Source: an uncultured Candidatus Saccharibacteria bacterium (lineage in GTDB: Bacteria > Patescibacteriota > Minisyncoccia > Phycocordibacterales > CSBR16-119). From it: 64,000 nt of DNA. Where the stretch lies: contig CAYRQF010000001.1 of assembly GCA_964426385.1 (NCBI GenBank), forward strand, positions 102,190 through 166,189, read 5' to 3'. Below, piece after piece: positions 1 through 61,094 of this stretch. The position numbers were made by a program, and so were the translations under genes. Within the stretch, counting starts at the first letter, position 1; each line of letters begins with the position of its first letter. The notes below the pieces were generated by a model. The model was not told where the DNA came from, did no database searches, and was given only the letters and a program-made list of their open reading frames with translations.

Positions 1-20
1 AAAATAGTAAAAATGAAAGT

Positions 21-656
21 TTGTCATGGGACGCACCGTATAGAAACGCCTGGTTAAAAATCAAAGATGATAAACAAATAATGTCTCAAGTTGCACAGAT
101 ACCACATCGTTCAAGAATTGCTCGAAAGACTAAAGGTGCTAGTGGTGTAGTCGCTTTTGCGAAAAAAAGCGGAAATTATGTATTTGCATTTGGAGCAACC
201 CCAGAAATGGTTGATATAGTTTCTCCTCAAGTTGCACTTCCTTTATTTAACGAGGTAGTTGATTCTGAGCAATCCCTTGAGACAAGTATGAATTTTGATC
301 CCATCTATAAAATGGCAAAGGAGCATATCTTCAAAGACAATACTAGGGTGACCGTAGACGGTGGAAGAAAGCAGGATGCACTTAATCGTATCAAACTACT
401 GAGCGAGATATATCCACAAGCCAAGGACCTTTGTATAGATGTTATACGTGCAATTAAAGATCTCGATGCATTACCAAACGGAGTTTTGAAAGAAATAGTA
501 AATTTAAGAATTGAGAAGACAAACCCTGATAGTGCATACCAGGAATTAAGAATCCTAATTCCAAATAAATATATCGAAAGTATCTTCAAGACAGCAGAAC
601 GGGCTAATGACGATGGGCAACTTATCGTGTTGTCTGAAGAGTTAATCCCATCATGA
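21..656 (+). CDS. Hypothetical protein, first gene of the methyltransferase operon. The frame is open to the window start, so the 5' end may lie upstream of position 1.
   Basis: 211-aa ORF annotated with a TTG start at 21. The frame stays open back to nt 3, so the gene may begin outside the window. Its stop overlaps the start of the downstream MTase gene (ATGA overlap at 653-656), indicating translational coupling. AT-rich composition. No motif recognised. Confidence 0.45.
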   Translation: MSWDAPYRNAWLKIKDDKQIMSQVAQIPHRSRIARKTKGASGVVAFAKKSGNYVFAFGATPEMVDIVSPQVALPLFNEVVDSEQSLETSMNFDPIYKMAKEHIFKDNTRVTVDGGRKQDALNRIKLLSEIYPQAKDLCIDVIRAIKDLDALPNGVLKEIVNLRIEKTNPDSAYQELRILIPNKYIESIFKTAERANDDGQLIVLSEELIPS

Positions 657-3600
657 AATTAAACGAGAAGTATAATCAGGGCCCTTTTATTGATTTTATT
701 GGTAATTTTTTACCTGATGATTTTCAATTAAAAGACGAAGATATTATTATTAAAAAAGATAGATATAAAGAAATCAGCAAAGCAAAAATTTTAGGCTTTT
801 GTGAATCGTTAGATTTGCATGTCTTAGAGATGGACCATACTCATGATAAGGATCCGAGAATAACCATAGCAACTGACGCGTTTAAAATCTTAGCAGACCA
901 TTGGATTCACCGAGCCCTAGTTATCTTCAAAAATAACGATTCTGAAAACTATCGCTTTTCGTATTTAACCATTACCTTAGATCTTAATGATAAAAATAAG
1001 GTCACGAAGAAATATTCTAATGCACGTCGATACTCTTTCTATTTGGGTGGTAATGCAAAAGTTAAAACACCAGAACAACAACTTATCAAAAAAGGCAGAA
1101 TTAAAGACGTAGAAGATTTGCTCAGTAGATTTTCTGTTGAGGTTGTTAATAAGCAATTTTATTTTGAGATTGCGAAATTCTTTGATGAACTTGTTTCAGG
1201 TGAAGATAAAAATCTAATACTTCCGGGCATATCTGAAGAAGATACAAATACGCGAAAGAGTTTCGCTGTTCGGCTCATTGGTCGTATTATGTTTTGTTGG
1301 TTTTTGAAACAGAAAAAATCAAATAATGGTCAGCTTATTCCTGATGAATTGCTTTCTTCAAAGATAGTTTCGGATAACTACTATCACAGTACGCTTGAGC
1401 CGTTATTTTTTGGCGTACTAAATACAAACATCGATTCTCGCGATATTCGTAGCGATTCCTTTGATAAAGTGCCGTATCTCAATGGAGGACTTTTTAACCC
1501 TCAATCAGACGATTATTATGAGCTCGATAGGGGAACTTTCGCCTCAAGGCACATAAACACTCTTAAAATCAATGATTCTTGGCTTAAGGACTTTTTTGAG
1601 CTTCTTGAAACTTATAACTTTACCATTGATGAAAATACAGTTTTTGATCAAGAACTTTCTGTTGATCCGGAAATGCTCGGTAGAATTTTTGAAAATCTAC
1701 TTGCAGAAATAAATCCCGAAACCGGAAGTAGTGATCGCAAGAGAACAGGGAGCTTTTATACTCCGCGTCAAATAGTTGAGTATATGGTTGATCAATCGTT
1801 GGTTGAATATCTAAAGACTAAGACAAAAATTAATGAAAAAAAGATATCAGCACTTGTTAGTTATGATTTAACAGATGATACAGAACATCCACTAAATAAT
1901 GACGAAAAACAAGAAATTATAAATGCGATAGAATCTCTTAAAATTCTTGACCCTGCTTGTGGTTCCGGTGCATACCCAATCGGCGCACTTCAGAAAATTG
2001 TTTACATTCTCCAGCAAATTGATCCGGATTGTAAAATGTGGCTTGAGCAGAAACTAAAAAATATTCCGGAGTTATATAAGAAAAAAATAATTGACGAAGT
2101 TAAATCTAACCCTTTTGACTACACACGAAAACTTGATGTTATTAAAAATTCAATCTTCGGTGTAGATATTCAACCAATTGCGGTGGATGTTTCCCGCTTG
2201 AGATGTTTTTTGACACTCGTCGTTGAGTCAGAAGTAAATGATACAAAACCAAACAGAGGAATAGAACCTTTACCGAACTTAGACTTTAAATTTGTATGTG
2301 CGAATACTTTGATTGGCTTGCCAAAATCTCAATCCAGCAATCTTTTCGAAGATCATTCCGGTATAATTGAGCTTTCAAAAATAATGTCGGAGTATTTTTC
2401 ATGTAATAGTCAAAGAAAAAATGAAATTAAACTTAAATTTACAAATTTACAAAAAGGAATATTAGAAAAGACGGTATCCGCCTTCGGTAAAAATACGGGA
2501 GAGCTAACTTTAAAACTTACAACTTGGAATCCGTTTAGTAATAATTCAAATTCTTGGTTTGACCCGGAATGGATGTTTGGATTGGGGGAAAAGTTTGATG
2601 TGGTTATCGGCAATCCGCCTTATGTTGATTCAGAGACAATGGTGAAAGATAACCCTGATTTGAGAAATTTATATACTTCGCTTTACAAAACAGCTAAAGG
2701 TAATTGGGATTTGTTTATCATTTTTATAGAGCAGGGCATTAATTTTCTAAGCCATTATGGAAATTTGTCATTCATCGTGCCTAACAAATTGATTGCCGCA
2801 AAATATTCTGAGTCAATTAGGCTCCACATGCAGACTAAAAATATAAAATACATAAGGGATTATTCTGATGTGAGGGTGTTTAAGGAGGCGAGTGTCTACC
2901 CGATTGTTTTTCAGATATCAAACTCATTAAATTCAGATTCAAGCATCATCTTAACAAAAATGAAAGATATTGAAGAATACGAATTAATTAACCAAATACC
3001 TCACGCGCTGTTTTATACGGACGTATTCTGGGATAGGTATTTTATAAAACCAGAAGCACTCAAAGTAATTATTAAAATCTCACAAAATCCTAAACTTGAA
3101 AAAATTAACGACTTAGTTTTGGGCGCAGCCACTGTTAATGAAGCATATCAGTTAAAAGAAATTATTACTGAGGCAGAAATTGAAAAACAAGAATATAAAA
3201 AACTAATTAATTCTGGAACAATTGATCCATATACTTCTTTATGGGGTGACAAAAAAACTCAATATATTAAATCGTCATATAAAGCACCCGTAGTCGAAAA
3301 TGACGAGCTAAACAAATTATTGCCGAGACGGTTTATTCAGGCGAATAGTGAAAAGCTTATTGTTGCCGGTATGTCAAAGAGATTAGAGGTTCTCTACGAT
3401 TCCGGTGAATACATTGCTGGTAAATCTACCACAATCATTTTAAATAATGAGAAAATTAACATGTTGTATTTACTTGCAGTTCTTAATTCAAAATTGATTT
3501 CTTATTGGTATAAGGTCTATTTTAGTTCTTTGTCACTTGCTGGAGGTTATCTAAGAATTAGTAATAACGAAATCAAAAAAATTCCAATCGTAGTGGCTGA

Positions 3601-3763
3601 TAAAAATACGCAAGAAGTTATGATTAAAATTGTTAACCAAATTCACGATTATAAAAAGGGAAGTAATAAAAATACAGACGACCTTGAGTCAAAAATTGAT
3701 GAATTAGTTATGGATTTATATGGACTAAGTGAGGAGGAAAAAGAAATAATTAGAAATTCATAA
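653..3763 (+). CDS. Gamma-class N6-adenine DNA methyltransferase, Type IIG/IIL restriction-modification-like (MmeI / BREX PglX family architecture)
   Basis: 1036-aa ORF. Motif X GSFYTPRQIVEYMV, motif I ILDPACGSGAYPIG and motif IV VIGNPPY occur in the gamma-class order. The N-terminus GPFIDFIGNF...SLDLHVLEMD resembles the MmeI-family N-terminal nuclease region, but the ExK lysine is replaced (D54, E59, D61). The LNGGLF helical-linker motif is present. The roughly 380-aa C-terminus is consistent with a target-recognition domain. Confidence 0.8.
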   Translation: MKLNEKYNQGPFIDFIGNFLPDDFQLKDEDIIIKKDRYKEISKAKILGFCESLDLHVLEMDHTHDKDPRITIATDAFKILADHWIHRALVIFKNNDSENYRFSYLTITLDLNDKNKVTKKYSNARRYSFYLGGNAKVKTPEQQLIKKGRIKDVEDLLSRFSVEVVNKQFYFEIAKFFDELVSGEDKNLILPGISEEDTNTRKSFAVRLIGRIMFCWFLKQKKSNNGQLIPDELLSSKIVSDNYYHSTLEPLFFGVLNTNIDSRDIRSDSFDKVPYLNGGLFNPQSDDYYELDRGTFASRHINTLKINDSWLKDFFELLETYNFTIDENTVFDQELSVDPEMLGRIFENLLAEINPETGSSDRKRTGSFYTPRQIVEYMVDQSLVEYLKTKTKINEKKISALVSYDLTDDTEHPLNNDEKQEIINAIESLKILDPACGSGAYPIGALQKIVYILQQIDPDCKMWLEQKLKNIPELYKKKIIDEVKSNPFDYTRKLDVIKNSIFGVDIQPIAVDVSRLRCFLTLVVESEVNDTKPNRGIEPLPNLDFKFVCANTLIGLPKSQSSNLFEDHSGIIELSKIMSEYFSCNSQRKNEIKLKFTNLQKGILEKTVSAFGKNTGELTLKLTTWNPFSNNSNSWFDPEWMFGLGEKFDVVIGNPPYVDSETMVKDNPDLRNLYTSLYKTAKGNWDLFIIFIEQGINFLSHYGNLSFIVPNKLIAAKYSESIRLHMQTKNIKYIRDYSDVRVFKEASVYPIVFQISNSLNSDSSIILTKMKDIEEYELINQIPHALFYTDVFWDRYFIKPEALKVIIKISQNPKLEKINDLVLGAATVNEAYQLKEIITEAEIEKQEYKKLINSGTIDPYTSLWGDKKTQYIKSSYKAPVVENDELNKLLPRRFIQANSEKLIVAGMSKRLEVLYDSGEYIAGKSTTIILNNEKINMLYLLAVLNSKLISYWYKVYFSSLSLAGGYLRISNNEIKKIPIVVADKNTQEVMIKIVNQIHDYKKGSNKNTDDLESKIDELVMDLYGLSEEEKEIIRNS

Positions 3764-3766
3764 AAT

Positions 3767-4672
3767 ATGATTGATGGAGATAAAAAGGAAATAAAGGAAA
3801 TCGTTATTACTCTTCACGGAGACTTAATGAGTGACAACAGTGTTGACTATAGGACAGTATTTGATGTTGTCGATGGGTCAATTGGTGCTATAGAAGGGTT
3901 CTCTCGTATTGCTAATTTTAACCAAGTTGTGAGTTATCGAGTGAAGCCGCCACGAAAGGGAAGTTTTGAAATATCGATTCAGGCAGTTCAGTTACTAGGA
4001 GTAGCCACGTTACCTATTATACAGAATGCTGGGACTATTAAAGATGTTATTAATCTTTTTACCGAGTATGTAAAAATTAAAAAAGCCCTAAGGGGTGAAG
4101 AGTTAAATAAAGAAAATATTCAAACTAATGAAAATGGAGATATTATTATAAAAAATAAAAGTGGATCCGTAGTTTATAATGATAATAGGAGGATAATCAG
4201 TGTTAATGTTATTAATAATGCGATAGCAGATCCACAAATAAATAAAAAAATAGATAAAATTGTAACCGCATTAGAGAAGAATGAGCAAGTTGATACTATA
4301 TTATTTAAGGATCCAGAATTAAAAGAAAATAACACTTTAACTATAAATAAAACAGATGTAGATGCATTAAAGTATAAAGAAAAATTTGAAGAAAAAGCAG
4401 ACCAACTTGTCGGCTATATAAGAATGATAAACAATAAAACCAATAAGGGAATAATTACAGCTTCAAATGATGAGAAGGGTCGAGGAATTAATTTTGAAAT
4501 TGACATAAAAGACATAGACCTTCTTGATAAGGTCGTCAGAAATCTTGCCCTGGCTGAAGCAGATAGATCAAGAGTGGTGTTCTCCGGTGAAAAGACTCTT
4601 GATTCTGTAGGGAATATAAAAAAGATTATTGTAAATGATGTTGATATTGTAGACAAATCATTTGATTTTTAA
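3767..4672 (+). CDS. Hypothetical protein, third gene of the methyltransferase operon
   Basis: 301-aa ORF starting 4 nt after the MTase stop. Low-complexity, K/N/D/I-rich and AT-rich. No recognisable motif. Confidence 0.45.
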   Translation: MIDGDKKEIKEIVITLHGDLMSDNSVDYRTVFDVVDGSIGAIEGFSRIANFNQVVSYRVKPPRKGSFEISIQAVQLLGVATLPIIQNAGTIKDVINLFTEYVKIKKALRGEELNKENIQTNENGDIIIKNKSGSVVYNDNRRIISVNVINNAIADPQINKKIDKIVTALEKNEQVDTILFKDPELKENNTLTINKTDVDALKYKEKFEEKADQLVGYIRMINNKTNKGIITASNDEKGRGINFEIDIKDIDLLDKVVRNLALAEADRSRVVFSGEKTLDSVGNIKKIIVNDVDIVDKSFDF

Positions 4673-4680
4673 TTGATTTC

Positions 4681-4731
4681 ATGGACATACTTGCGCACAC
4701 ATTATGGGCGAATGCCGGGGCAAGGGGGTAG
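4681..4731 (+). pseudogene. Duplicated 5' fragment (16 codons plus stop) of the ydjM-like membrane protein gene found at 6688
   Basis: ATGGACATACTTGCGCACACATTATGGGCGAATGCCGGGGCAAGGGGGTAG encodes MDILAHTLWANAGARG*. It is near-identical to the first 16 codons of ORF 6688..7242 (MDILAHTLWTNAGARG...). Confidence 0.55.
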
Positions 4732-4869
4732 GGTAGTACAATTCCTTTCATTCATATTTCCCGTCCATCTCACTCCTTCCACCCCATCATTTAACCCCCG
4801 ATCTCACTATTTCATCACCCCTCCAGACCACTAGTCCATACTAGCATTTTGCAAAACACTGCAATAAGG
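4715..4869 (+). repeat. Direct repeat copy A (about 155 bp): G-rich core CCGGGGCAAGGGGGTAGGGTAGTA followed by a C/T-rich block and a conserved ACTAGCATTTTGCAAAACACTG box
   Basis: About 90% identical to copy B at 5835..6032. Contains repeated GATCTCACT submotifs. Ends in a palindromic TTTTGCAAAA box followed by an AATAAG -10-like element upstream of ORF 4900. Confidence 0.7.
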
Positions 4870-4899
4870 AAATTTAGAGAAGAATGGTAAAATAGATTT

Positions 4900-5493
4900 A
4901 TGAAAAAATATCATACTGTATTAATTCTTGTAGCGCTGGTAATTGCGTCTATATTTCTTGCTTCACTGCTGGAGGAGGTTACTTGGCGACGGTCTGCTAA
5001 TAAAAAGGCAGTTCTCCAAGAGCAGGCCATAGAGCAAGTTCCTGCTGTTGCTGATACACAAAATATAGAGCCCGAAGAATCTATAAAATCTCCCGTTAAC
5101 TACGAAGCCGCAAATGATTACATTCTTGATAGTGGATGTAGTTATGACATGTCTAATAATGCATACACGAACTGTGCAGAGGATGCGTTAAATAAAATAA
5201 AGGAGGTAAAAAAGAATGATTTTAAAAAATTAAAGGAACTAATGAATAGCAGGGAAGACAATGTCCTAACCTCCAATCAAGAAGAAAACCAAAAGCTGTA
5301 TAGCTGGTATGAATCTTCTGAAAAGGCCAACAGTCTAAGATGCCTAGTCGCTATGTATTGGACAAGGGCTGGTTCTGCTTACAATCAGAACATATATATG
5401 TGTGAAATACAGGAAACACTTACAGATATTGAAATAATCAATGAAAACTACAAAGAAATAAAAGAATGGATTGATACCATGGATATTTATTAA
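4900..5493 (+). CDS. Hypothetical signal-anchored/secreted protein
   Basis: 197 aa with an N-terminal hydrophobic segment (LILVALVIASIFLASLL). AT-rich. Preceded by repeat copy A. Confidence 0.45.
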   Translation: MKKYHTVLILVALVIASIFLASLLEEVTWRRSANKKAVLQEQAIEQVPAVADTQNIEPEESIKSPVNYEAANDYILDSGCSYDMSNNAYTNCAEDALNKIKEVKKNDFKKLKELMNSREDNVLTSNQEENQKLYSWYESSEKANSLRCLVAMYWTRAGSAYNQNIYMCEIQETLTDIEIINENYKEIKEWIDTMDIY

Positions 5494-5516
5494 TTTATGA
5501 AATATACTATAAAATT

Positions 5517-5777
5517 ATGAAATACTTAATATTAATATTTATACTAATAATATTTTTCTGGTATGTAATACGACCCCAAGTCCTATCAAAAAATATTTGC
5601 GAGTCAACATACGTATACCATAGTTTAATTGAAAACGGTGTCTTGGTAAATTACCATACGGCATCTGGTGTAACAGGACCGACAATAGAATTTTCTAGTA
5701 AAAAATCGGCTATAAAATCCTGTACGTATTTTCACAAAAAAATGTATAGGTCTTCTTTTCCTTTCTATTTATTTTAA
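5517..5777 (+). CDS. Hypothetical small membrane protein
   Basis: 86 aa with an N-terminal TM segment (YLILIFILIIFFWYVI). The ORF ends in an A/T-rich tail. Confidence 0.3.
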   Translation: MKYLILIFILIIFFWYVIRPQVLSKNICESTYVYHSLIENGVLVNYHTASGVTGPTIEFSSKKSAIKSCTYFHKKMYRSSFPFYLF

Positions 5778-5834
5778 AAAAGGAAATAGGGTCAGCCACA
5801 AAGTATCAAACCAATATGAAAAAATTTACATTGT

Positions 5835-6032
5835 CGCGGGGGCGAGGGGGTAGGGTAGTATTGTTTTACAATTCCTTTTTTTAATTTCTTTCATTCATGT
5901 TTCCCGTCCCATCTCACTCCTCCCACCCCATCATTTAACCCCCGATCTCACTCCTTCCACCACGATCTCACTATTTCATCACCCCTCCAGACCATTAGTC
6001 TATACTAGTATTTTGCAAAACACTGGTATGAG
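5835..6032 (+). repeat. Direct repeat copy B (about 200 bp) with core CGCGGGGGCGAGGGGGTAGGGTAGTA and box ACTAGTATTTTGCAAAACACTGGTATGAG
   Basis: Aligns with copy A over its whole length, and with the 5' end of gene 6688 over the G-rich core. Ends immediately upstream of the arsR-like gene. A TGGTATGAG extended -10-like element follows the box. Confidence 0.7.
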
Positions 6033-6061
6033 AAAAAAGGCGGTGATATAATTAAAAAACT

Positions 6062-6334
6062 ATGGCATTGGACTATCGAAAAGTTGAAAGGTTGTTAAAA
6101 GGTTTTGCCAATCATAATCGGCTCAAGATTTTGGAATTGCTAGAAAAACAGCCAGAACTGTCTGTGGCTGGCATATCAGAGAAACTTAAAATAGGGTATG
6201 AGAACGCGTCAGATCATATTCGTAAAATGGCTATTGCCGGACTTCTCTTGAAACGTAACGACGGCCCCAACGTCCGCCACCGCCTCACCCCAAAGGCAAT
6301 CTCAATACTAGCATTTTGCAAAACACTAGTATAA
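6062..6334 (+). CDS. ArsR/SmtB-family winged-helix transcriptional regulator
   Basis: 90 aa. NHNRLKILELLEKQPELSVAGISEKLKIGYENASDHIRKMAIAGLL matches the ArsR HTH signature. The 3' end of the gene itself contains the third copy of the TTTTGCAAAA box. Confidence 0.8.
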   Translation: MALDYRKVERLLKGFANHNRLKILELLEKQPELSVAGISEKLKIGYENASDHIRKMAIAGLLLKRNDGPNVRHRLTPKAISILAFCKTLV

Positions 6335-6336
6335 GA
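6296..6336 (+). promoter_or_regulatory. Third copy (C) of the conserved box ATACTAGCATTTTGCAAAACACTAGTATAAG: imperfect palindrome ACTAG-N-TTTTGCAAAA-N-CTAGT plus a TATAAG -10-like element
   Basis: The same box ends repeat A (4846..4869) and repeat B (6004..6032). Here it overlaps the arsR stop and lies upstream of the phnA-like ORF. Candidate operator or promoter. Confidence 0.45.
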
Positions 6337-6390
6337 AAATAGGCGGATATTGAGTGCTGAATTGATATAAAAATACTATAATCGAATCAT

Positions 6391-6654
6391 ATGTCACATG
6401 AAAACCAAGATTTAGAATCAGAAGACGTAGAAGAAACCGAAGCCTGCGTTGATAGCGACGGGAAACCCCTGCTGTCTGGAGATGAGGTATCGGTGATCAA
6501 GGACCTGAAAGTCGGCGGGACGAAACTAACGATTAGAAAGGGGACAGTAATCAAAAATATTAGATTAACCGACGACGTCGAGGAGATCGAATGCCGTTAT
6601 GATGATATGAAAGGCATTATTCTTCGTACTGAATTTTTACGCAAACGTTCGTAG
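6391..6654 (+). CDS. PhnA-domain (YjdC-like) small protein
   Basis: 87 aa. DGKPLLSGDEVSVIKDLKVGGTKLTIRKGTVIKNIRLTDDVEEIECRYDDMKGIILRTEFLRK matches the PhnA C-terminal domain pattern (KDLKVKG...KNIRLV...C...). Confidence 0.6.
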   Translation: MSHENQDLESEDVEETEACVDSDGKPLLSGDEVSVIKDLKVGGTKLTIRKGTVIKNIRLTDDVEEIECRYDDMKGIILRTEFLRKRS

Positions 6655-6687
6655 GTTTATATTGGCAAAAATAATCATTACGAGATC

Positions 6688-7242
6688 ATGGATATATTGG
6701 CACACACATTATGGACGAACGCGGGGGCGAGGGGGGTGAATAAGCTTCGCGAGAAGAAGGGTAAACCTCGAATATTTCACGTCGGCTGGACAGCCTTCTG
6801 GGGCGTAGCGCCGGACTTCTTCGCCTTTACGGCGCCGTTCGTCATAGCTCTCTGGAACATCGTCTTTGGCGATGCCACATTTGGAAATATTCGCAGCAAT
6901 ATGGACGTGGGAGGGTTCGATCTCGCGGCGTACCTGTATCAGTACAGTCACTCCCTCGTTGTCTTCGCCGTAGTGTTCCTACTAGTCTGGCTCATCTCGC
7001 GCCGTCCACGCTGGGAGATGCTCGGCTGGGCACTCCATATACTCATCGATATCCCGTCTCACGACATCGGTTTCTACGCCACGCCGTTCCTATTCCCGAT
7101 ATCTGACTATCGTTTCCCATACGGCGTGTCCTGGGGTAACACTTACTACATGATCATCAACTACTCCGCACTAGTCCTAGTCTGGAGCGGTATCGCCATC
7201 GCGAAAATCCGCAAGACTATAAATGCCCGAAAGACCCTATAA
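6688..7242 (+). CDS. Membrane-bound metal-dependent hydrolase-like protein (YdjM/DUF457-like), GC-rich
   Basis: 184 aa with multiple TM segments and HTLW/HD motifs. Notably higher GC than its left neighbours. Its first 50 bp are duplicated at 4681 and partly at 5835. Confidence 0.45.
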   Translation: MDILAHTLWTNAGARGVNKLREKKGKPRIFHVGWTAFWGVAPDFFAFTAPFVIALWNIVFGDATFGNIRSNMDVGGFDLAAYLYQYSHSLVVFAVVFLLVWLISRRPRWEMLGWALHILIDIPSHDIGFYATPFLFPISDYRFPYGVSWGNTYYMIINYSALVLVWSGIAIAKIRKTINARKTL

Positions 7243-7286
7243 AATGGTTGTATTGACAACGTATATACAATGTATATACTAATGAT

Positions 7287-7547
7287 ATGACTACAATAAA
7301 CATTCGAATCGACGAAAAACTAAAGAAAGCGGCAGGGAAAACCCTGGCGTCTCTTGGCCTCGACACTTCTTCTGCTGTGAAGATGTTTCTTTCGCAGGTA
7401 GTAACCGAAAATGGTTTGCCATTTACTCCAAGTAAAGATCCGGCGAAGATTCGCGCTCGTTGGGATAAGGAAGTCGCAGAAGCTCTGAAGAATGGCAAGA
7501 GGTATTCTACGGCGGAAGAAATGCACAAAGATATCTTCAAGGTATAA
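7287..7547 (+). CDS. dinJ: DinJ/RelB-family antitoxin (ribbon-helix-helix)
   Basis: 86 aa. NIRIDEKLKKAAGKTLASLGLDTSSAVKMFLSQVVTENGLPF is a classic DinJ N-terminus. Immediately followed by a YafQ-like toxin gene. Confidence 0.8.
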   Translation: MTTINIRIDEKLKKAAGKTLASLGLDTSSAVKMFLSQVVTENGLPFTPSKDPAKIRARWDKEVAEALKNGKRYSTAEEMHKDIFKV

Positions 7548-7555
7548 TAATAAGC

Positions 7556-7831
7556 ATGTACGAAATCCAATTTTCGTCAACTTACAAAAAGTCTATTAAA
7601 AGAGTAAGGAAAGGTGGGAAGATCTCTATGTCAGAGGTCTACCTTGTCATCAACACTCTTGCCTCTGGTAAACCTCTTTCTGTAAAACACAGGGACCATA
7701 AGCTAAGTGGCGAATTTTCAATGTATCGAGAGTGTCACATCAAGCCAGACTTGTTACTTATATATCAAATCAAAAATGATATTCTAGTTTTGGTTTTAAT
7801 AAACATAGGTTCACACTCAGAGCTTTTCTAG
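7556..7831 (+). CDS. yafQ: YafQ/RelE-family type II toxin (mRNA interferase)
   Basis: 91 aa. KHRDHKLSGEFSMYRECHIKPDLLLIYQI...INIGSHSELF matches the YafQ signature (KDH.L.G...YR..H..PD.LLIY...GSHS.LF). 8 nt downstream of dinJ. Confidence 0.8.
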   Translation: MYEIQFSSTYKKSIKRVRKGGKISMSEVYLVINTLASGKPLSVKHRDHKLSGEFSMYRECHIKPDLLLIYQIKNDILVLVLINIGSHSELF

Positions 7832-7834
7832 GAA

Positions 7835-8086
7835 ATGTACACTTTATATATTCTCAAATGCTCTGACGGGAGTCTCTATACCGGCATCACCACAGACCTA
7901 GCGAGGAGAGTGGCTGAACATAACGCCGGCAAAACAGGCGCGAAGTATACCCGAGCGAGGCGACCGGTAGCAGTCGTATACTCTCGAAAGTTTCGCACAC
8001 GCTCTACTGCGTCTCGTGAAGAAGCGAGGATCAAGACTCTGACTCGCGTTGATAAACTCGAGTTGTTAAGCGCTAAATCTAAATAA
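7835..8086 (+). CDS. GIY-YIG nuclease family protein (UPF0213-like)
   Basis: 83 aa. YTLYILKCSDGSLYTGITTDLARRVAEHN carries the GIY-YIG core motifs. Confidence 0.75.
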   Translation: MYTLYILKCSDGSLYTGITTDLARRVAEHNAGKTGAKYTRARRPVAVVYSRKFRTRSTASREEARIKTLTRVDKLELLSAKSK

Positions 8087-8115
8087 GCGTATAATAGAAA
8101 TAGGCCGAAACGTTT

Positions 8116-8187
8116 ACCCCCACACCTACTTTTTCATAGTTCTTTGAACACGCGCCTTTAGCGCAATGAAAAAGTAGGTGTAGGGGT
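8116..8187. repeat. Long-stem hairpin H1: arms ACCCCCACACCTACTTTTTCAT / ATGAAAAAGTAGGTGTAGGGGT (21 of 22 bp) around a 28-nt loop containing GCGC
   Basis: Stem read directly from the sequence. Intergenic between the GIY-YIG and lapA-like genes. Shares the CCCCCACACCTA arm with H2 at 55687..55755. Confidence 0.6.
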
Positions 8188-8213
8188 TTATCAAAATTAA
8201 TTTAGAAAAATCT

Positions 8214-8546
8214 ATGACACTTATTTTAGGACTTATACTTGGAGCCGGTTTCGTCGTATTCGCACTCCAGAACACGCAGACCGTTATGGTCACATTTCTC
8301 GGATGGGGATTCGAGGGATCTGTTGCCGTCATCGTCATCGCAGCATTACTCGCAGGTATCGTCATCAGCCTACTCATGGCTATCCCGGGAGTTATCCGCA
8401 ACATGATATCCGAATCTAGCCTGCGTGGTCACAACGATGCACTTCGTCGAGAACTCGATGATCACAAAGAGAAGCTCGAGGACGCACATAGGACTATCGC
8501 CGAGATCAAGAAGACTCCTGATGAGATCGTCATCACCAAGCTGTAA
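8214..8546 (+). CDS. LapA/DUF1049-like small membrane protein
   Basis: 110 aa with two TM helices followed by a charged coiled tail (RRELDDHKEKLEDAHRTIAEIKK), typical of the lipopolysaccharide assembly protein A domain family. Confidence 0.5.
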   Translation: MTLILGLILGAGFVVFALQNTQTVMVTFLGWGFEGSVAVIVIAALLAGIVISLLMAIPGVIRNMISESSLRGHNDALRRELDDHKEKLEDAHRTIAEIKKTPDEIVITKL

Positions 8547-8548
8547 GA

Positions 8549-9091
8549 ATGGAGAGGAGTATCAACGGCATACCATATACACTGCGTAACACTGCGCGCA
8601 AGATGCGTGTCTCTATCCGCATAGATAGTGCTGGTACTCTCGTCGTTTCGAAGTCTCGGTGGATATCTGTCCGACAAGCTGAGCGGGTCGTAGAGCGGAA
8701 CCTCGTCTGGATAGAGACGAAGATGAAGGAGATGAATGCCAGGCCAAAGAAACTCCTCGAGCACTACTCACGCGCAGACTTCCTCGCTTATCGAGAAACC
8801 GCCAGAAAGCTCGTCAGCGAAAGGCTAAAATATTTCAACCAGACGTATAGATTCGACATCGGTCGCATCTCTATCCGGAATCAGAAGTCTCGGTGGGGTA
8901 GTTGCTCGATGCTCGGGAATGTGAATTTTAATTACAAGCTCGCACTACTGCCACCAGCACTCTCTGACTACGTCATCGTGCATGAACTATGTCATATAGG
9001 TGAAATGAATCATGGGCCGAAGTTCTGGGCACTCGTCGCTAGGGCGATCCCAGACTGGGTAGATAGGAGACGAGCACTGAAAGCTTACTAG
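8549..9091 (+). CDS. YgjP-like metal-dependent hydrolase (DUF45, M48/SprT-like HExxH)
   Basis: 180 aa. RWGSCS...DYVIVHELCHIGEMNHGPKFWALV matches the conserved DUF45 core with an HELCH zinc motif. Confidence 0.75.
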   Translation: MERSINGIPYTLRNTARKMRVSIRIDSAGTLVVSKSRWISVRQAERVVERNLVWIETKMKEMNARPKKLLEHYSRADFLAYRETARKLVSERLKYFNQTYRFDIGRISIRNQKSRWGSCSMLGNVNFNYKLALLPPALSDYVIVHELCHIGEMNHGPKFWALVARAIPDWVDRRRALKAY

Positions 9092-9139
9092 TATCCGAGA
9101 AATAGCCTTTTTGGAAATTATAGTTTAGAATATTTACAT

Positions 9140-36201: not shown

Positions 36202-37515
36202 GTGAAAAAAAGCTTAACAATACTCCTACTACTTCTAATGACAGCAGGTCATGGCTTTGTTTTTGCCCAATCAAATCTCGAAACAGAACTCGAGGCTAAG
36301 CGCAAAGCCAAAGAAGCTCTCGAGCTCGAACTTCGACAAGACCAGCTCAAGCTCGATGCCATAAGTGCTGAGAAGAATACTATCGATAAAGCTGTAAAAG
36401 AACTCGACTATACCCAGAAGAAACTCGGTACAGAGGTGAAACTCACTGAGTCAAAAATCGGCGAGACTGAAACTCATATCCAAGAGCTCGATAACACTAT
36501 CCGCACCAAGGAAGAGAAGATTATTCTTTTCAAACAAACGATCCGAGAGGGTATACAGAGTATTAACGTCGAAGATGGCACACCTTTCGTTGTGCGTATA
36601 CTCGCCAGCGGTTCAGTGACCGGCGCGATCCAAGAAACTGATGAGAGAATCAAACTGAATCAGGAGATGGGCGGGGCCATAGATAGTCTCCTTACTGAAA
36701 AAGAAAAACTTTTACTAGACAAAACCTCGAGAGAGCTCAAGAAAGTTGAACTTTTGGATTATAAGGGGGAAGTAGTCGGCCAGAAGAGTCAGGTGGATGC
36801 GAACAAGCAAGAGAAGACTACACTCCTCAATCAGACCAAAGCAGAAGAGGCTGCATACCAGAAAATTATCGCTGAGAAGAAGAAGCTTCAAGCACAATTC
36901 GAGGCTGAACTCTCCGCCATCGAAGCCAAGATGAAATTCAATCTAGATCCGACATCGTACCCGAAGCCGGCTCACGGCATACTCGCTTGGCCTAGAGAGG
37001 ATGTGCTCATAACTCAGGGATTCGGTCTAACGGAGAGCTCATACAAGCTATACAACTACAGAACTGGTGCCTGGAAAGGCAAGCATGCCGGCGTAGACTT
37101 CCGTGCGAATAATGACAAAGTCCTAGCTATGGCTGAAGGCGTTGTTGTTGGCACGGGCAACACTGATCAGGTTTGTCCGAGGGCTTCTACTGGAGTATGG
37201 GTACTGCTGAAGTACGACAACGGTCTCGCGAGTACTTTCTTCCATCTATCGAGCGTTGTGGTAAAAACAGGTGACAGGGTAAAGACTGGCCAGATTATTG
37301 CCTACAGTGGAAACACTGGTTACTCAACAGCTCCACATCTCCACGTTGGCGTCATGCCATCGAGTGTTGTATCCGTCGAGACTTGGCCATCTGCAGGGTG
37401 TCCGGGCAAGAACTACACGACACCGCTCGTTGCGAACTCATTCTATCTGAACCCACTAGACTATCTACCGGTTGCCACACCTAACATGTTCAAGGAAAAT
37501 CTAAATGGCGAATAG
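36202..37515 (+). CDS. Secreted M23-family peptidoglycan DD-metalloendopeptidase with an N-terminal coiled coil (EnvC/NlpD-like)
   Basis: 437 aa. Signal peptide, about 230 aa of coiled coil, then the M23 motifs HAGVDF...D and GNTGYSTAPHLHVGV. Confidence 0.8.
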   Translation: MKKSLTILLLLLMTAGHGFVFAQSNLETELEAKRKAKEALELELRQDQLKLDAISAEKNTIDKAVKELDYTQKKLGTEVKLTESKIGETETHIQELDNTIRTKEEKIILFKQTIREGIQSINVEDGTPFVVRILASGSVTGAIQETDERIKLNQEMGGAIDSLLTEKEKLLLDKTSRELKKVELLDYKGEVVGQKSQVDANKQEKTTLLNQTKAEEAAYQKIIAEKKKLQAQFEAELSAIEAKMKFNLDPTSYPKPAHGILAWPREDVLITQGFGLTESSYKLYNYRTGAWKGKHAGVDFRANNDKVLAMAEGVVVGTGNTDQVCPRASTGVWVLLKYDNGLASTFFHLSSVVVKTGDRVKTGQIIAYSGNTGYSTAPHLHVGVMPSSVVSVETWPSAGCPGKNYTTPLVANSFYLNPLDYLPVATPNMFKENLNGE

Positions 37516-37762
37516 CTTCAAGGAAAAAGTTTTAGCGATTGTAAAAAAGATTCCGAAAGGGAAGACTCTCACCTACAAACAAGTCGCTGACAGAGCCGGA
37601 AGCCCTAATGCCTCACGAGCAGTGGGGAGTGTGCTGAAGCAAAACTATAATCCTGATATTCCATGCCACCGAGTCATCAGATCAGACGGCGTCGCCGGTG
37701 AATACAATCGTGGAAGAGACAATAAAATCAAACTGTTGAGAAGTGAGGGCGCGATAAAGTGA
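37505..37762 (+). CDS. MGMT-family protein: methylated-DNA-protein-cysteine methyltransferase DNA-binding/active-site domain only (85 aa)
   Basis: TYKQVADRAGSPNASRAVGSVLKQNYNPDIPCHRVIRSDG contains the PCHRV active-site cysteine motif of the Ogt/Ada C-terminal domain. Confidence 0.7.
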   Translation: MANSFKEKVLAIVKKIPKGKTLTYKQVADRAGSPNASRAVGSVLKQNYNPDIPCHRVIRSDGVAGEYNRGRDNKIKLLRSEGAIK

Positions 37763-37787
37763 ATCTGATACAATTTATATATCAATT

Positions 37788-38210
37788 ATGTCAGGCAAAG
37801 ATAAACAGCTAGACCTAAACAGGGGTCGTGTTCAAACGAGACATCCGAGACTCATGGCTAACGGAATGCCCGGGTTTATAAACGTGCGCACTCTTGTCGT
37901 CGTGATACTCATCCTCGTCACACTAGGACTTCTCGGTGTGTCAGTAGAGGATGACATCGTCGCCAATCCTGATGTCCAGGAAAACACTTCATATGTTTGG
38001 GAGGGCGTCAGTCATATCTGGCAGACGTATCTCGCTGGTCCCGCAAGCTTTATATTGAACGACGTTATCGTCGGCATACTCTGGGAAGGTTTCCGGCTGA
38101 ATATGGAGAGACTCCAGAACGGCGAGTCACCGACAGATTTCTACAGTATGGACACCTCAAGTATCCCATCCATTCCTGATCTAATAAGCGAATACAACCA
38201 GAATAATTAA
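37788..38210 (+). CDS. Hypothetical membrane-anchored protein
   Basis: 140 aa with one TM segment (LVVVILILVTLGLLGV). Confidence 0.4.
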   Translation: MSGKDKQLDLNRGRVQTRHPRLMANGMPGFINVRTLVVVILILVTLGLLGVSVEDDIVANPDVQENTSYVWEGVSHIWQTYLAGPASFILNDVIVGILWEGFRLNMERLQNGESPTDFYSMDTSSIPSIPDLISEYNQNN

Positions 38211-38214
38211 AAAG

Positions 38215-38258
38215 AAGAAGCCCCGGCACGATGTGTCCGGGGCTTTGATCATTTTCAC
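38215..38258. terminator. Bidirectional terminator (AAGCCCCGGCACGATGTGTCCGGGGCTTT)
   Basis: 9-bp GC-rich stem flanked by A and T runs, between convergent genes 37788..38210 (+) and 38267..38755 (-). Confidence 0.65.
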
Positions 38259-38266
38259 TTTCTTGG

Positions 38267-38755
38267 TCAACTACGCACGCTCAATTGCATGATCTCGTAG
38301 TGCTTCAACAGGCGCATCATTGCAAGTGTTGACTGACGGATGTCCTCGTGTGCTTCGTTGTACACTTGTAGTGCGGCTTCCTTGGTCCTTGTCTCGATGA
38401 GCTCATCGAGCGAGAGCTCCTTCCAGCGATTGAGAACCGCGGTCTCAAGTTCGTTCATCTGAGCTGCGGTATGCCCTGTACGTTGGGTCTTGAAAAACCA
38501 GCGAAGGTTGTGATAGGCATTACGTGCCTGTCTTGCCTTGGTCAGCTCCACGTTCGGATCTGTCGTCACAAGAACGATACGCTTCAGATCCAAGCTTCTT
38601 CGGATATCATCCTCACTGATACCGGTATCGAGCGACATCTGGTAGATGTCCAGAATAGGCTTGTTAGTTGTGCTCATGGTCGTGGGTTTGTTTGAGTTAA
38701 CTTTACGCAGAAACTGTAGAGTGTCAATCGGGGGAGTAAGATAGAACTTTTGCAC
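38267..38755 (-). CDS. Hypothetical protein
   Basis: 162-aa ORF with a charged, helical character. No motif recognised. Confidence 0.4.
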   Translation of the reverse strand: MQKFYLTPPIDTLQFLRKVNSNKPTTMSTTNKPILDIYQMSLDTGISEDDIRRSLDLKRIVLVTTDPNVELTKARQARNAYHNLRWFFKTQRTGHTAAQMNELETAVLNRWKELSLDELIETRTKEAALQVYNEAHEDIRQSTLAMMRLLKHYEIMQLSVRS

Positions 38756-38991
38756 AGAGCACGAGTTCCAGATGATCTAGACCATGACTTGATCGGGGAT
38801 AAGTAAGAATCGGATCCTCAAACGAAAATTTCTAATCGCCGTGGGGGATAAGTCCCTAGAGCCAAGCGTCGTAAAAGATATATTGTGCGACGTGTCTCTA
38901 TAGGAGAAAACCGGCTCCCCATCGATAAAGTGGCCGGTTATCCAGTAAATATTATTTTGTATTTTTACACGTATTTCCCCGCCATATTCGA

Positions 38992-39960
38992 CTAGGAGAT
39001 TATTTCCTCCCCCTCTTCTTTAGAGCTCTCAGTCTTAAATTTGCGAAATACGTTAATTGCTTCTTCTAGCAAAACGAGCTTATTGGTCGGATAAGCTTCA
39101 AATATCCTTTTTGCCCTATCTACCATGCTTTGGCTTGGTGAAGCTATTATTCTTTCTACCATCTCATCATATTCATTCTCTAGAGATCTCTTTTTCTCTG
39201 GACTGACATCGAGTTGATTGATCAAACCATAGTTAGCACTTCGAGTAGCCTGGAGTACGATACTCTGATATGTACTGAGAACGTTTTCAAAGCTAGCGGA
39301 CCCATTCAAAACTATTTCACTTTCGAGTAGATCTAGCTGAGCAGCGGTATTCTTGGCACCCTGAGCTCTCAGCTGTGAATTCCTATCGTCATAAGTGTGG
39401 GGTTCTATAAAACCGTCCCCATCTTTCTCTAGATGTCTTTCGATGATCTTGAAACGGAGATTCTTTACACCCTCCTTCGATAGAAGTGATGTAAACAAAT
39501 TATATTTCTGAGTTATGACGATATCCCAAAATAGCGCCTCCATTTCTTCTCGGGTTTGAAGTTCGTCATTTATATTATCCTTGACGCTATCCTTATCGAA
39601 GAATTGTGAGCCAAAATGTTTCCCCTCTGACCGTTCATATTCAACGACACCATGAAAGAAATCGTGCCAAGCGAGCTGTTTGATTGATTCTTGGGTATCT
39701 TCTAGGTCGGCATCTGGACGCTCTTCGTAGTCCTGTTTTACGATCTTCTTTACTAATTCTGGTCCGTACTTGATCAGAGCTTCTTCGAGCTCTCGTTGGT
39801 ACTCTTCTGGTATCTCGGTACCTTTTGGTATCCCAAAGCGAGACAATACGTGTTTATCTTTGACCGTTAACACCTCTCGCGACCACTGTTCGATCGTCTC
39901 ATCAGAAATCACTGTCTTTCCTTCCCTATTATTTCTTGGGGCACCTGATTTGAATTCCAT
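38992..39960 (-). CDS. Hypothetical protein (acidic)
   Basis: 322-aa ORF with good coding character. No motif recognised. Confidence 0.45.
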   Translation of the reverse strand: MEFKSGAPRNNREGKTVISDETIEQWSREVLTVKDKHVLSRFGIPKGTEIPEEYQRELEEALIKYGPELVKKIVKQDYEERPDADLEDTQESIKQLAWHDFFHGVVEYERSEGKHFGSQFFDKDSVKDNINDELQTREEMEALFWDIVITQKYNLFTSLLSKEGVKNLRFKIIERHLEKDGDGFIEPHTYDDRNSQLRAQGAKNTAAQLDLLESEIVLNGSASFENVLSTYQSIVLQATRSANYGLINQLDVSPEKKRSLENEYDEMVERIIASPSQSMVDRAKRIFEAYPTNKLVLLEEAINVFRKFKTESSKEEGEEIIS

Positions 39961-61076: not shown

Positions 61077-61094
61077 GCGCTTATTATAGCAAAT

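Follow-up and report, generated by a model that had tools for sequence, protein, structure and literature searches.

A probable ArsR-controlled mosaic gene array at the edge of a low-GC defence island in a Saccharibacteria genome

Introduction

Repressors of the ArsR/SmtB family, such as SmtB, CzrA, CadC, HlyU and BigR, are autoregulated, and their operators are imperfect inverted repeats (of the 12-2-12 type) that lie at the repressors' own promoters. The members of the candidate phyla radiation (CPR; Patescibacteria) are mostly uncultured, and to our knowledge almost nothing is known of their gene regulation. The subject of this study is a stretch of 64,000 nucleotides from an uncultured Candidatus Saccharibacteria bacterium (GenBank assembly GCA_964426385.1, contig CAYRQF010000001.1, positions 102,190 to 166,189 of the forward strand), which is called the window in the following and is numbered from its first letter. 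In this window, three copies of a 28-bp palindromic box (boxes A, B and C) accompany a gene for a 90-aa ArsR/SmtB-type regulator, here termed arsR, upstream of a ydjM-like membrane-protein gene. Loci from other genomes with which the window was compared are cited by L numbers.

With the known ArsR/SmtB repressors, the system of the window shares the small winged-helix dimer fold, as far as this can be predicted, and a palindromic site of about 28 bp at the promoters of the regulator's own gene and of neighbouring genes. Unlike in the known cases, the regulator has none of the known sensing residues and scores under the NCBIfam cutoff, one of the operators lies inside the last nine codons of the regulator gene, which is the case family-wide, and the sites are found in modular arrays that are exchanged between CPR lineages. 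The ArsR-box system is limited to CPR. In the searchable literature, nothing relevant was found on the palindrome or on an ArsR regulator or operator in Patescibacteria.

There are also described systems in which small gene modules are arranged by recurring DNA elements. As in integron arrays, small gene units are found in tandem, there is a recurring separator element, and the content varies between related genomes. Unlike in integrons, no IntI was found (open reading frames [ORFs] of at least 80 aa in the window; Pfam scans), there is no attC-type folded site, and in place of promoterless cassettes each unit of the window has its own -10 hexamer, with the recurring element co-occurring with the regulator gene. 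An integron was rejected on all three counts, IntI, attC folds and promoterless cassettes. The pdif (XerC/D) modules of Acinetobacter plasmids and the integrative mobile elements exploiting Xer (IMEX) are similar in that small modules are bounded by 28-bp sites of an 11-6-11 structure, but the sites in the window are direct and not alternating inverted, chromosomal, and linked to promoters. The box also does not resemble the dif consensus. Islands between attL and attR sites and defence hotspots likewise have a variable, defence-rich segment that lies against a conserved gene, and the 50-nt duplication of a gene end may be a further likeness; unlike in such islands, no integrase was found in the window, the repeats are only 84% identical, and the inner junction is a microhomology join. 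Of the internal third copy just 16 nt are left, with unrelated sequence adjoining them.

The best explanation of the locus, with a probability of roughly 0.6, is that a low-GC defence island has at its right edge, immediately before the conserved ydjM-like gene, a mosaic array of genes under ArsR control. The data show the repeats, the association of the box with arsR, the constraint on the box as DNA, the lateral exchange of the module, the empty sites in relatives, a boundary in base composition and a microhomology junction, while the binding and repression by ArsR, the order of events and the insulator role of the spacers are inferred.

The box and the ArsR-type regulator

The sequence ACTAGYATTTTGCAAAACACT occurs at 4840, 6004 and 6307, with no occurrence expected by chance, and forms the middle of the full box, a 28-bp near-palindrome (ATACTAGyATTTTG/CAAAAcACTrGTAT). 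As had been described in the initial annotation, there are three such boxes, the third of which forms the last codons and the stop of arsR. Each box is followed by a -10 hexamer that lies 6-9 nt from an ATG (Table 1). The exact 21-mer of the box is present in 17 loci from 16 CPR genome records, the names of which comprise Saccharibacteria, Nomura-, Vogel-, Wolfe- and Zambryskibacteria, Paceibacterota and Minisyncoccia, and it is absent from the phage, plasmid and viral collections searched. A conserved box elsewhere, the lack of which would have spoken against the initial annotation, thus exists. Box A recurs together with its downstream promoter in L010, L015 and L016 at 89-93% identity.

The gene arsR is accompanied by the box. 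In every arsR locus examined, which are 11 loci of different CPR genomes with the window included, a box lies within the final nine codons of the gene, and in 10 of these 11 a second box is found at the arsR promoter, about 300 bp upstream of the terminal one (L006, L008, L010, L013, L018, L019, L032, L036 and L041 besides the window); in L005, only the terminal box is visible, the locus being cut off upstream. The arrangement with both boxes holds even for orthologues that are merely 72-75% identical in protein (L032, L036/L040, L041), and the variants of the box change together in each genome, with both copies being AAAAAACT in L032 and both being AAAAGACT in L041. The box within arsR is constrained as DNA and not as protein alone, because the synonymous-codon identity (codon pairs for the same residue) is 0.83 over arsR codons 82-91 versus 0.51 over codons 1-81; it reaches 1.00 at L83 and from F85 through T/K88. 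The family-invariant residues F85-C86-K87 are encoded by TTT TGC AAA (6314-6322), which is the centre of the presumed operator. The regulator's single cysteine, whose codon belongs to this centre, is therefore fixed by the DNA site, or jointly with it.

The regulator itself is predicted to be a canonical ArsR/SmtB winged helix. Its model (AlphaFold2, mean predicted local distance difference test score 81) has the order alpha1-alpha2-alpha3-alphaR-wing-alpha5 and matches CadC and CzrA with template modelling scores of 0.86-0.89 in Foldseek, and the family profile finds CadC in the PDB with E=9e-10. The codons in box C are those for the C-terminal half of alpha5. The match to NCBIfam HTH_metalloreg is a near miss (50.4 bits, cutoff 55). 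Known ligands of metals or arsenite, i.e. the CxC of alpha3 and the His/Asp cluster of alpha5, were not found, as ELSVAG aligns with ELCVCD of CadC; the sole Cys is C86, and it is the only Cys among the family-invariant residues. With 575 homologue clusters at E <= 1e-8, the regulator appears to be widespread in CPR.

From this anatomy, the 28-bp box is best understood as an operator to which the 90-aa regulator of ArsR/SmtB type belongs. That ArsR binds the box and represses from it would be in line with the established biology of ArsR/SmtB repressors, the operators of which are imperfect inverted repeats at their own promoters. The -10 of arsR is kept in other loci, and box B ends 17 nt upstream of it. 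A box at this position implies that arsR would be autoregulated, while box C in the last nine codons of arsR would serve the next gene, and box A precedes the gene pair for proteins of 197 and 86 aa. A single repressor would in this way gate three units: 197aa-86aa, arsR, and phnA-ydjM. The ydjM-like gene has the same orientation as phnA and starts 33 nt behind it, without a predicted terminator between the two. Two proposals of the initial annotation are supported by this: every unit has its own promoter and putative operator, with a box and a -10 in front of it, and ArsR is a plausible binder of the palindrome, as the boxes flank arsR, are adjacent to promoters, co-vary, and are under synonymous constraint.

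Table 1. Coordinates of the features at the locus (positions in the window).
Feature	Position	Strand	Remarks
Low-GC (33%) defence island, right part	1..4672	+	Eco57I/MmeI-type restriction-modification gene 653-3763 and 301-aa ORF 3767-4672
Relic of the ydjM-like 5' end, 16 codons then TAG	4679..4731	+	84% identity to 6686-6735
Arm A, C-rich/G-poor spacer, two ~20-nt direct units	4732..4834	+	C 43%, G 4%
Box A, palindromic operator (putative), form with GCAAT right end	4838..4865	.	repeat search
Extended -10 TGGTAAAAT	4885..4893	+	6 nt before ATG 4900; leaderless-type
Cassette 1	4900..5777	+	197-aa gene 4900-5493 and 86-aa gene 5517-5777, function of neither known; 32% GC
Truncated 'MKKIY' module, junction J2	5782..5842	+	5' end of a small ORF (ATG 5817, MKKFTLS...), cut at CGCGGGGG
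Core copy B CGCGGGGGCGAGGGGG	5835..5850	+	remnant of a resident-type ydjM 5' relic; 16/16 nt identical to 6720-6735
Arm B, C-rich/G-poor spacer, three ~20-nt units	5851..5998	+	C 38%, G 5%
Box B, putative operator at the arsR promoter	6002..6029	.	equivalent position upstream of arsR in nine other loci
Extended -10 TGATATAAT, arsR promoter	6044..6052	+	9 nt before ATG 6062
90-aa ArsR/SmtB-family winged-helix regulator (predicted)	6062..6334	+	Pfam HTH_5 E=1.2e-6; Foldseek
Box C, putative operator inside arsR codons 82-91 (ILAFCKTLV and stop)	6305..6332	.	sequence search
TATAAT -10 hexamer	6377..6382	+	8 nt before phnA ATG 6391
PhnA/YjdM-like gene	6391..6654	+	Pfam YjdM E=4e-24
Intact ydjM-like membrane-protein gene	6688..7242	+	second copy of the duplicated segment in its first 48 nt

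The repeats upstream of boxes A and B

Boxes A and B are parts of longer repeats, A (4715-4869) and B (5835-6032), the alignment of which has the same letter at 143 of 156 positions (91.7%) and comprises a further 42 gap columns. The 13 mismatches are of several types, with C/T and A/G in the majority, and one 20-nt gap corresponds to exactly one of the internal units of about 20 nt (GATCTCACTCCTTCCACC), in agreement with the C/T-rich repeats of about 90% identity that the initial annotation had reported. The repeats are best seen as two versions of an arsR upstream module which consists of a relic of the ydjM 5' end, a repeat-expanded spacer (the arm) and the operator.

The relic in copy A is a duplicated 5' fragment of ydjM, as had been noted before: 4679-4728 matches 6686-6735 with 84% identity over 50 nt, and the copy at 4681 reads MDILAHTLWANAGARG and then stops. 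Of the eight nucleotide differences to the resident copy, seven are synonymous, and in identity relic A stands closer to the ydjM 5' end of L026 (95.8%) than to the resident gene (84%). A G-rich core, which the annotation had also listed three times, is found at 4714-4738, 5836-5860 and 6721-6745, and it is simply codons 11-16 of the ydjM-like gene. The extended core GGGGCRAGGGGGTAGGGTAGTA with the extension TAGGGTAGTA occurs only at 4717 and 5839, with none expected in shuffles. The junction of relic and arm (GGGGG/TAGGGT) exists in three copies including one upstream of arsR in L010, which is the sole other genome with it.

The arms are compositionally exceptional, as the whole 64 kb contain 96-nt stretches of such a composition only in arms A and B and at one marginal site. 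Arm B is 80% identical to the arm of L010, in which most of the repeated units are missing and which is therefore shorter, and in L041 (Vogelbacteria) a short sequence related to the arm's left end (TAGGG...ACAATTYCC...CATCT) lies before the arsR operator without any ydjM relic. Because of these occurrences in L010 and L041, the arm can be regarded as the upstream region of arsR, enlarged in the window through the duplication of units. That the arm is a decayed extension of ydjM or codes on the opposite strand was rejected for lack of similarity and because of the many stops. A diversity-generating retroelement does not account for the repeats either, since the mismatches between A and B are not A-specific and no reverse transcriptase is among the ORFs scanned, and a miniature inverted-repeat transposable element or insertion sequence was discarded because there are no terminal inverted repeats or target duplications around the repeats and no transposase among the ORFs scanned. 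Arm and box had no match in viral contigs, and the module had none in phage or plasmid collections; with these viral, phage and plasmid searches being empty, a phage or plasmid as vehicle was rejected.

It had been considered on annotation that the C-rich repeats encode a small RNA, and a cis-regulatory RNA on either strand can be added to this. Two intergenic copies of about 92% identity and of unusual composition would fit such an RNA, but there is no match to an Rfam family at the gathering threshold, with chance matches only at E <= 10, and the folds of both arms on both strands have z-scores of -0.34, -0.07, -1.43 and +0.23 against shuffles. The repeats of 140-150 nt thus fold no better than shuffles on either strand, and only the 28-bp palindrome is self-complementary. 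In addition, the indels between the copies comprise whole repeat units, and most of the tract is missing from the L010 homologue, so that an RNA function is very improbable and the suggestion was abandoned. The arms are reminiscent of the Rho utilization (rut) tracts of Rho-dependent terminators, with which they share a length of more than 95 nt, a C content of 38-43% and a G content of 4-5%, an unstructured coding strand (+ strand folds near zero), and a position between an upstream operon and a regulated promoter. Unlike rut tracts, the arms are built of recently expanded repeat units. Given their length, their richness in C and poverty in G, their unstructured sense strand and the absence of any predicted intrinsic terminator from the stretch between upstream genes and regulated promoters, the arms may act as rut-like insulators that shield the regulated promoters from read-through.

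The variable region upstream of ydjM and the origin of the tandem copies

The closest ydjM orthologues, with 72-81% protein identity, are those of L022-L026. Downstream of ydjM, synteny is kept in these loci, and upstream of it the content differs in each: there is a type I restriction-modification (RM) system in L022, a SocA/Panacea toxin-antitoxin system in L023, an N6/N4 methylase with PhnA, DoxX and GIY-YIG in L024 and L025, and an EcoRI-type methylase with GmrSD in L026. In all five loci ydjM is intact, and relic, arm and box are absent. As the module is missing from these five loci, with different genes, mostly of defence, upstream of ydjM, the region can be regarded as a variable hotspot, and the comparison of orthologous loci that had been proposed on annotation has thus provided the empty sites. 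As phnA is 87% identical at the nucleotide level to the phnA near ydjM in L024, it is a native neighbour of ydjM, and the idea that it was brought in as cassette cargo had to be given up.

The GC content is 33.2% over 1-4672, 32.4% over 4870-5834, and 45.6% over 6033-9100, being about 46% from arsR rightward. Copy A is situated inside the low-GC island, which terminates at copy B. Due to this base composition and the allele of relic A, copy A and cassette 1 are likely to have arrived together with the island. The gene pair of cassette 1 is also found in L029 and L030, with 72-76% nucleotide identity and without box or arm. In these two genomes the box-less pair is preceded by a different repeat-rich element (TTTACTTTACATTTGGTGAAAAGTAAATAAGTATGTAAAC, L029 ~4950-5000 and L030 ~4940-5000) and faces a defence cluster with an HTH_17 gene; in this arrangement, another pair of regulator and operator may serve the same cargo.

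What lies in front of copy B is no ydjM sequence; it is another small ORF's start, which is truncated. Complete starts of this ORF (MKKIYIVAGVV...) are present in L006 (5712-5773) and twice in L015 (5664-5723 and 6352-6387), with about 88% identity, and the start is truncated exactly at CGCGGGGG, which is the same 8 nt that open the ydjM-derived core. Junction J2 is thus an 8-nt microhomology. The MKKIY module is a second conserved intergenic module of its own (GGAAATAGGGTCAGCC...ATCAAACCAAT-ATG AAA AAA ATA TAC ATT GTC GCG GGG GTT...); it starts a short hydrophobic ORF, the C-terminus of which differs at each site, and different genes follow downstream. It could be a leader peptide, a recurrent relic of a gene start, or a mobile piece of a promoter.

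In the simplest reading of the order of events, which is a model, the donor would have been a related CPR bacterium with a low-GC segment of at least 5.8 kb that already carried its own module of relic, arm and operator, the 197/86-aa pair, and RM genes. The right end of this segment would have been joined to the resident relic via the microhomology CGCGGGGG, by which A, as the donor's version, and B, as the resident one, would have come to lie in tandem. Such a process would resemble homology-facilitated illegitimate recombination, which is known from naturally transformable bacteria.

The initial annotation had explained the layout by successive insertions at one attachment site inside the 5' end of ydjM. 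In the full form of this explanation, the core in codons 11-16 is an attachment site for a recombinase acting in trans, two circular cassettes with promoters were inserted one after the other, and every insertion left one copy of core and arm. A 50-nt direct repeat does flank the inserted block, ydjM was kept intact, and there are the empty sites in the five related loci and the three junctions of core and arm, of which one is in a second genome. The differences between the relic copies are nearly all synonymous as if they were drawn from functional alleles, and the iteron-like direct repeats of the arm could be arm-type binding sites. Against these stand the repeats with their mere 84% identity, the left flank of copy B, which is the 5' fragment of another gene joined by microhomology and hence an illegitimate and not an att join, and the first 16 codons of ydjM, which have no special conservation at the DNA level as an att site might show. 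In L041 the arm is an ordinary arsR upstream region without ydjM relic, the allele and the GC context of copy A fit an arrival with the island, and a metagenome scan for the junction of core and arm gave a single chance match inside an aminotransferase gene. A tyrosine recombinase was not found among all window ORFs of at least 80 aa with phmmer and an Xer-like query, the left end of the island lying beyond the window, and no recombinase or transposase family is present among the about 40 largest and the neighbouring ORFs of the window that were scanned against Pfam. The ORFs between the repeats are the two of cassette 1, ArsR and PhnA, and thus do not include an integrase gene (Pfam). Site-specific cassette integration is therefore unlikely. 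Of the original interpretation the variable hotspot has stood, and the single attachment site has not, given the lack of a recombinase among the ORFs searched, the rarity of the core-arm junction, which recurred only in L010, and the microhomology join.

Exchange of modules among CPR genomes

Homologues of the window sequences come from Patescibacteria/CPR, and the arsR module is exchanged laterally between CPR lineages. Compared with L010, arsR of the window has 90% nucleotide identity and a proportion of synonymous differences (pS) of 0.27, whereas the adjacent ydjM has 67% identity and a saturated pS of 0.82. Such arrays also gain and lose units. L006 and L008 have flanks that are 93% identical and differ by a 437-bp unit between two copies of a 34-nt box. 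In place of the box-arsR-box of L008, just one box is present in L004, and in L013 a different gene follows the second box. Behind the boxes, small genes of accessory or stress function are found (TspO, rhodanese, cupin, YgjP-like, a 160-aa family, NosD-like), DoxX genes adjoin the arrays in L010 and L027, and box arrays commonly adjoin RM or other defence genes.

With units that come and go exactly between boxes, it has to be asked whether the box is a recombination site, similar to Xer/dif sites, pdif modules or a minimal attC, with arsR being one of the shuffled units and not the reader of the box. The box can indeed be read as an 11-6-11 site (ATACTAGCATT-TTGCAA-AACACTAGTAT), to which an operator of 12-4-12 or 14-0-14 fits equally well, and the lateral exchange of the arsR module, the solo boxes between convergent genes and the box of L014 that lies 8 nt beyond the stop of an Xer-like gene would all be compatible with recombination. 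In that locus (oriented), the box is at 4874-4894 and the Xer-like tyrosine recombinase gene at 4902-5807 (-), the genes on either side of the box being convergent; L014 is a single case and the sole physical link of box and recombinase. There is otherwise no linked recombinase, the box is absent from the phage, plasmid and viral collections, and its position is fixed relative to -10 hexamers and to arsR in divergent genomes, where the variants co-vary per genome. Boxes A, B and C and the box pairs elsewhere are all direct repeats, and true Xer sites in such an arrangement in a chromosome would cause deletions. No box is found near the switch of GC skew and gene orientation at about 38 kb, where a dif site is expected, and the box was rejected as chromosomal dif site on this ground. 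A box that serves only recombination is thus quite improbable.

It is similarly doubtful, at low odds, that the box doubles as the crossover site of a CPR-specific exchange of promoter-bearing cassettes that spreads units between lineages of Patescibacteria. If this were true, the same DNA would be at once a recombination site, an operator and the last codons of a regulator, and the arrays would be a promoter-carrying analogue of integrons and pdif modules.

Some of the observations weigh against an ArsR-controlled mosaic array. The exact swapping of units at boxes also fits boxes as recombination sites. Several boxes lie between convergent genes or have no obvious promoter downstream (L011, L012, L014, L020), and a pure operator model accounts for these only as relics. 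The best -10 of phnA lies 45 nt beyond the end of box C, which is why the control of phnA-ydjM is less certain than that of the other two units. Finally, the relic-arm junction of L010 sits in a genome the ydjM of which is merely about 68% identical, and the occurrence in such a divergent genome means that the junction is old or has travelled with the module, so that the order of events stays a model. The mosaic array under ArsR control nevertheless remains the best explanation of the locus.

Neighbouring features

The window begins within an ORF that runs straight into the RM gene at 653, and the left end of the low-GC island is outside the window. The RM gene matches Pfam Eco57I with E=5e-32, and the 301-aa ORF behind it has a sub-threshold match to NCBIfam LAPAL_fam (42 bits, cutoff 60). 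In L017, a 302-aa ORF is found in the equivalent position after a similar RM gene, and there is no detectable homology between the two ORFs.

Directly downstream of the ydjM-like gene lies a RelB/YafQ toxin-antitoxin pair (7287-7831). It is missing from the syntenic loci L024 and L026, and it is a further small insertion at the locus. From about 9 kb on, the window is ordinary core chromosome with genes for aminoacyl-tRNA synthetases, murein synthesis, ATP synthase, release factor RF-1 and ribosomal protein L25. At about 37,500-39,000, the cumulative GC skew has its maximum and the gene orientation turns from + to -, with no box-like sequence there; this is probably the replication terminus.

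The sequence TGnTAnnnT, followed after about 6 nt by an ATG, is found at 4885, 10414, 11180, 14540, 23881, 30145, 32632 and 61417 on the + strand and at 61091 on the - strand. This pattern suggests that many genes here may have leaderless or near-leaderless mRNAs from extended -10 promoters.

Significance

The locus reveals a regulator-operator pair that is apparently shared widely across CPR, with the 575 homologue clusters of the regulator and the identical 21-mer in 16 records. Unusual about it are the overlap of an operator with the C-terminal codons of its regulator, the arrangement of small stress and accessory genes (TspO, DoxX, PhnA, rhodanese, YgjP, cupin) into modular arrays by the sites, and an arsR module that is laterally exchanged and lies in defence-rich variable regions. 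The junctions described here also make the locus a worked example of how variable islands can be stitched together by short homology in reduced genomes. A position weight matrix of the box could serve to map a CPR regulon from sequence alone, and if the boxes should recombine as well, they would represent a new cassette system.

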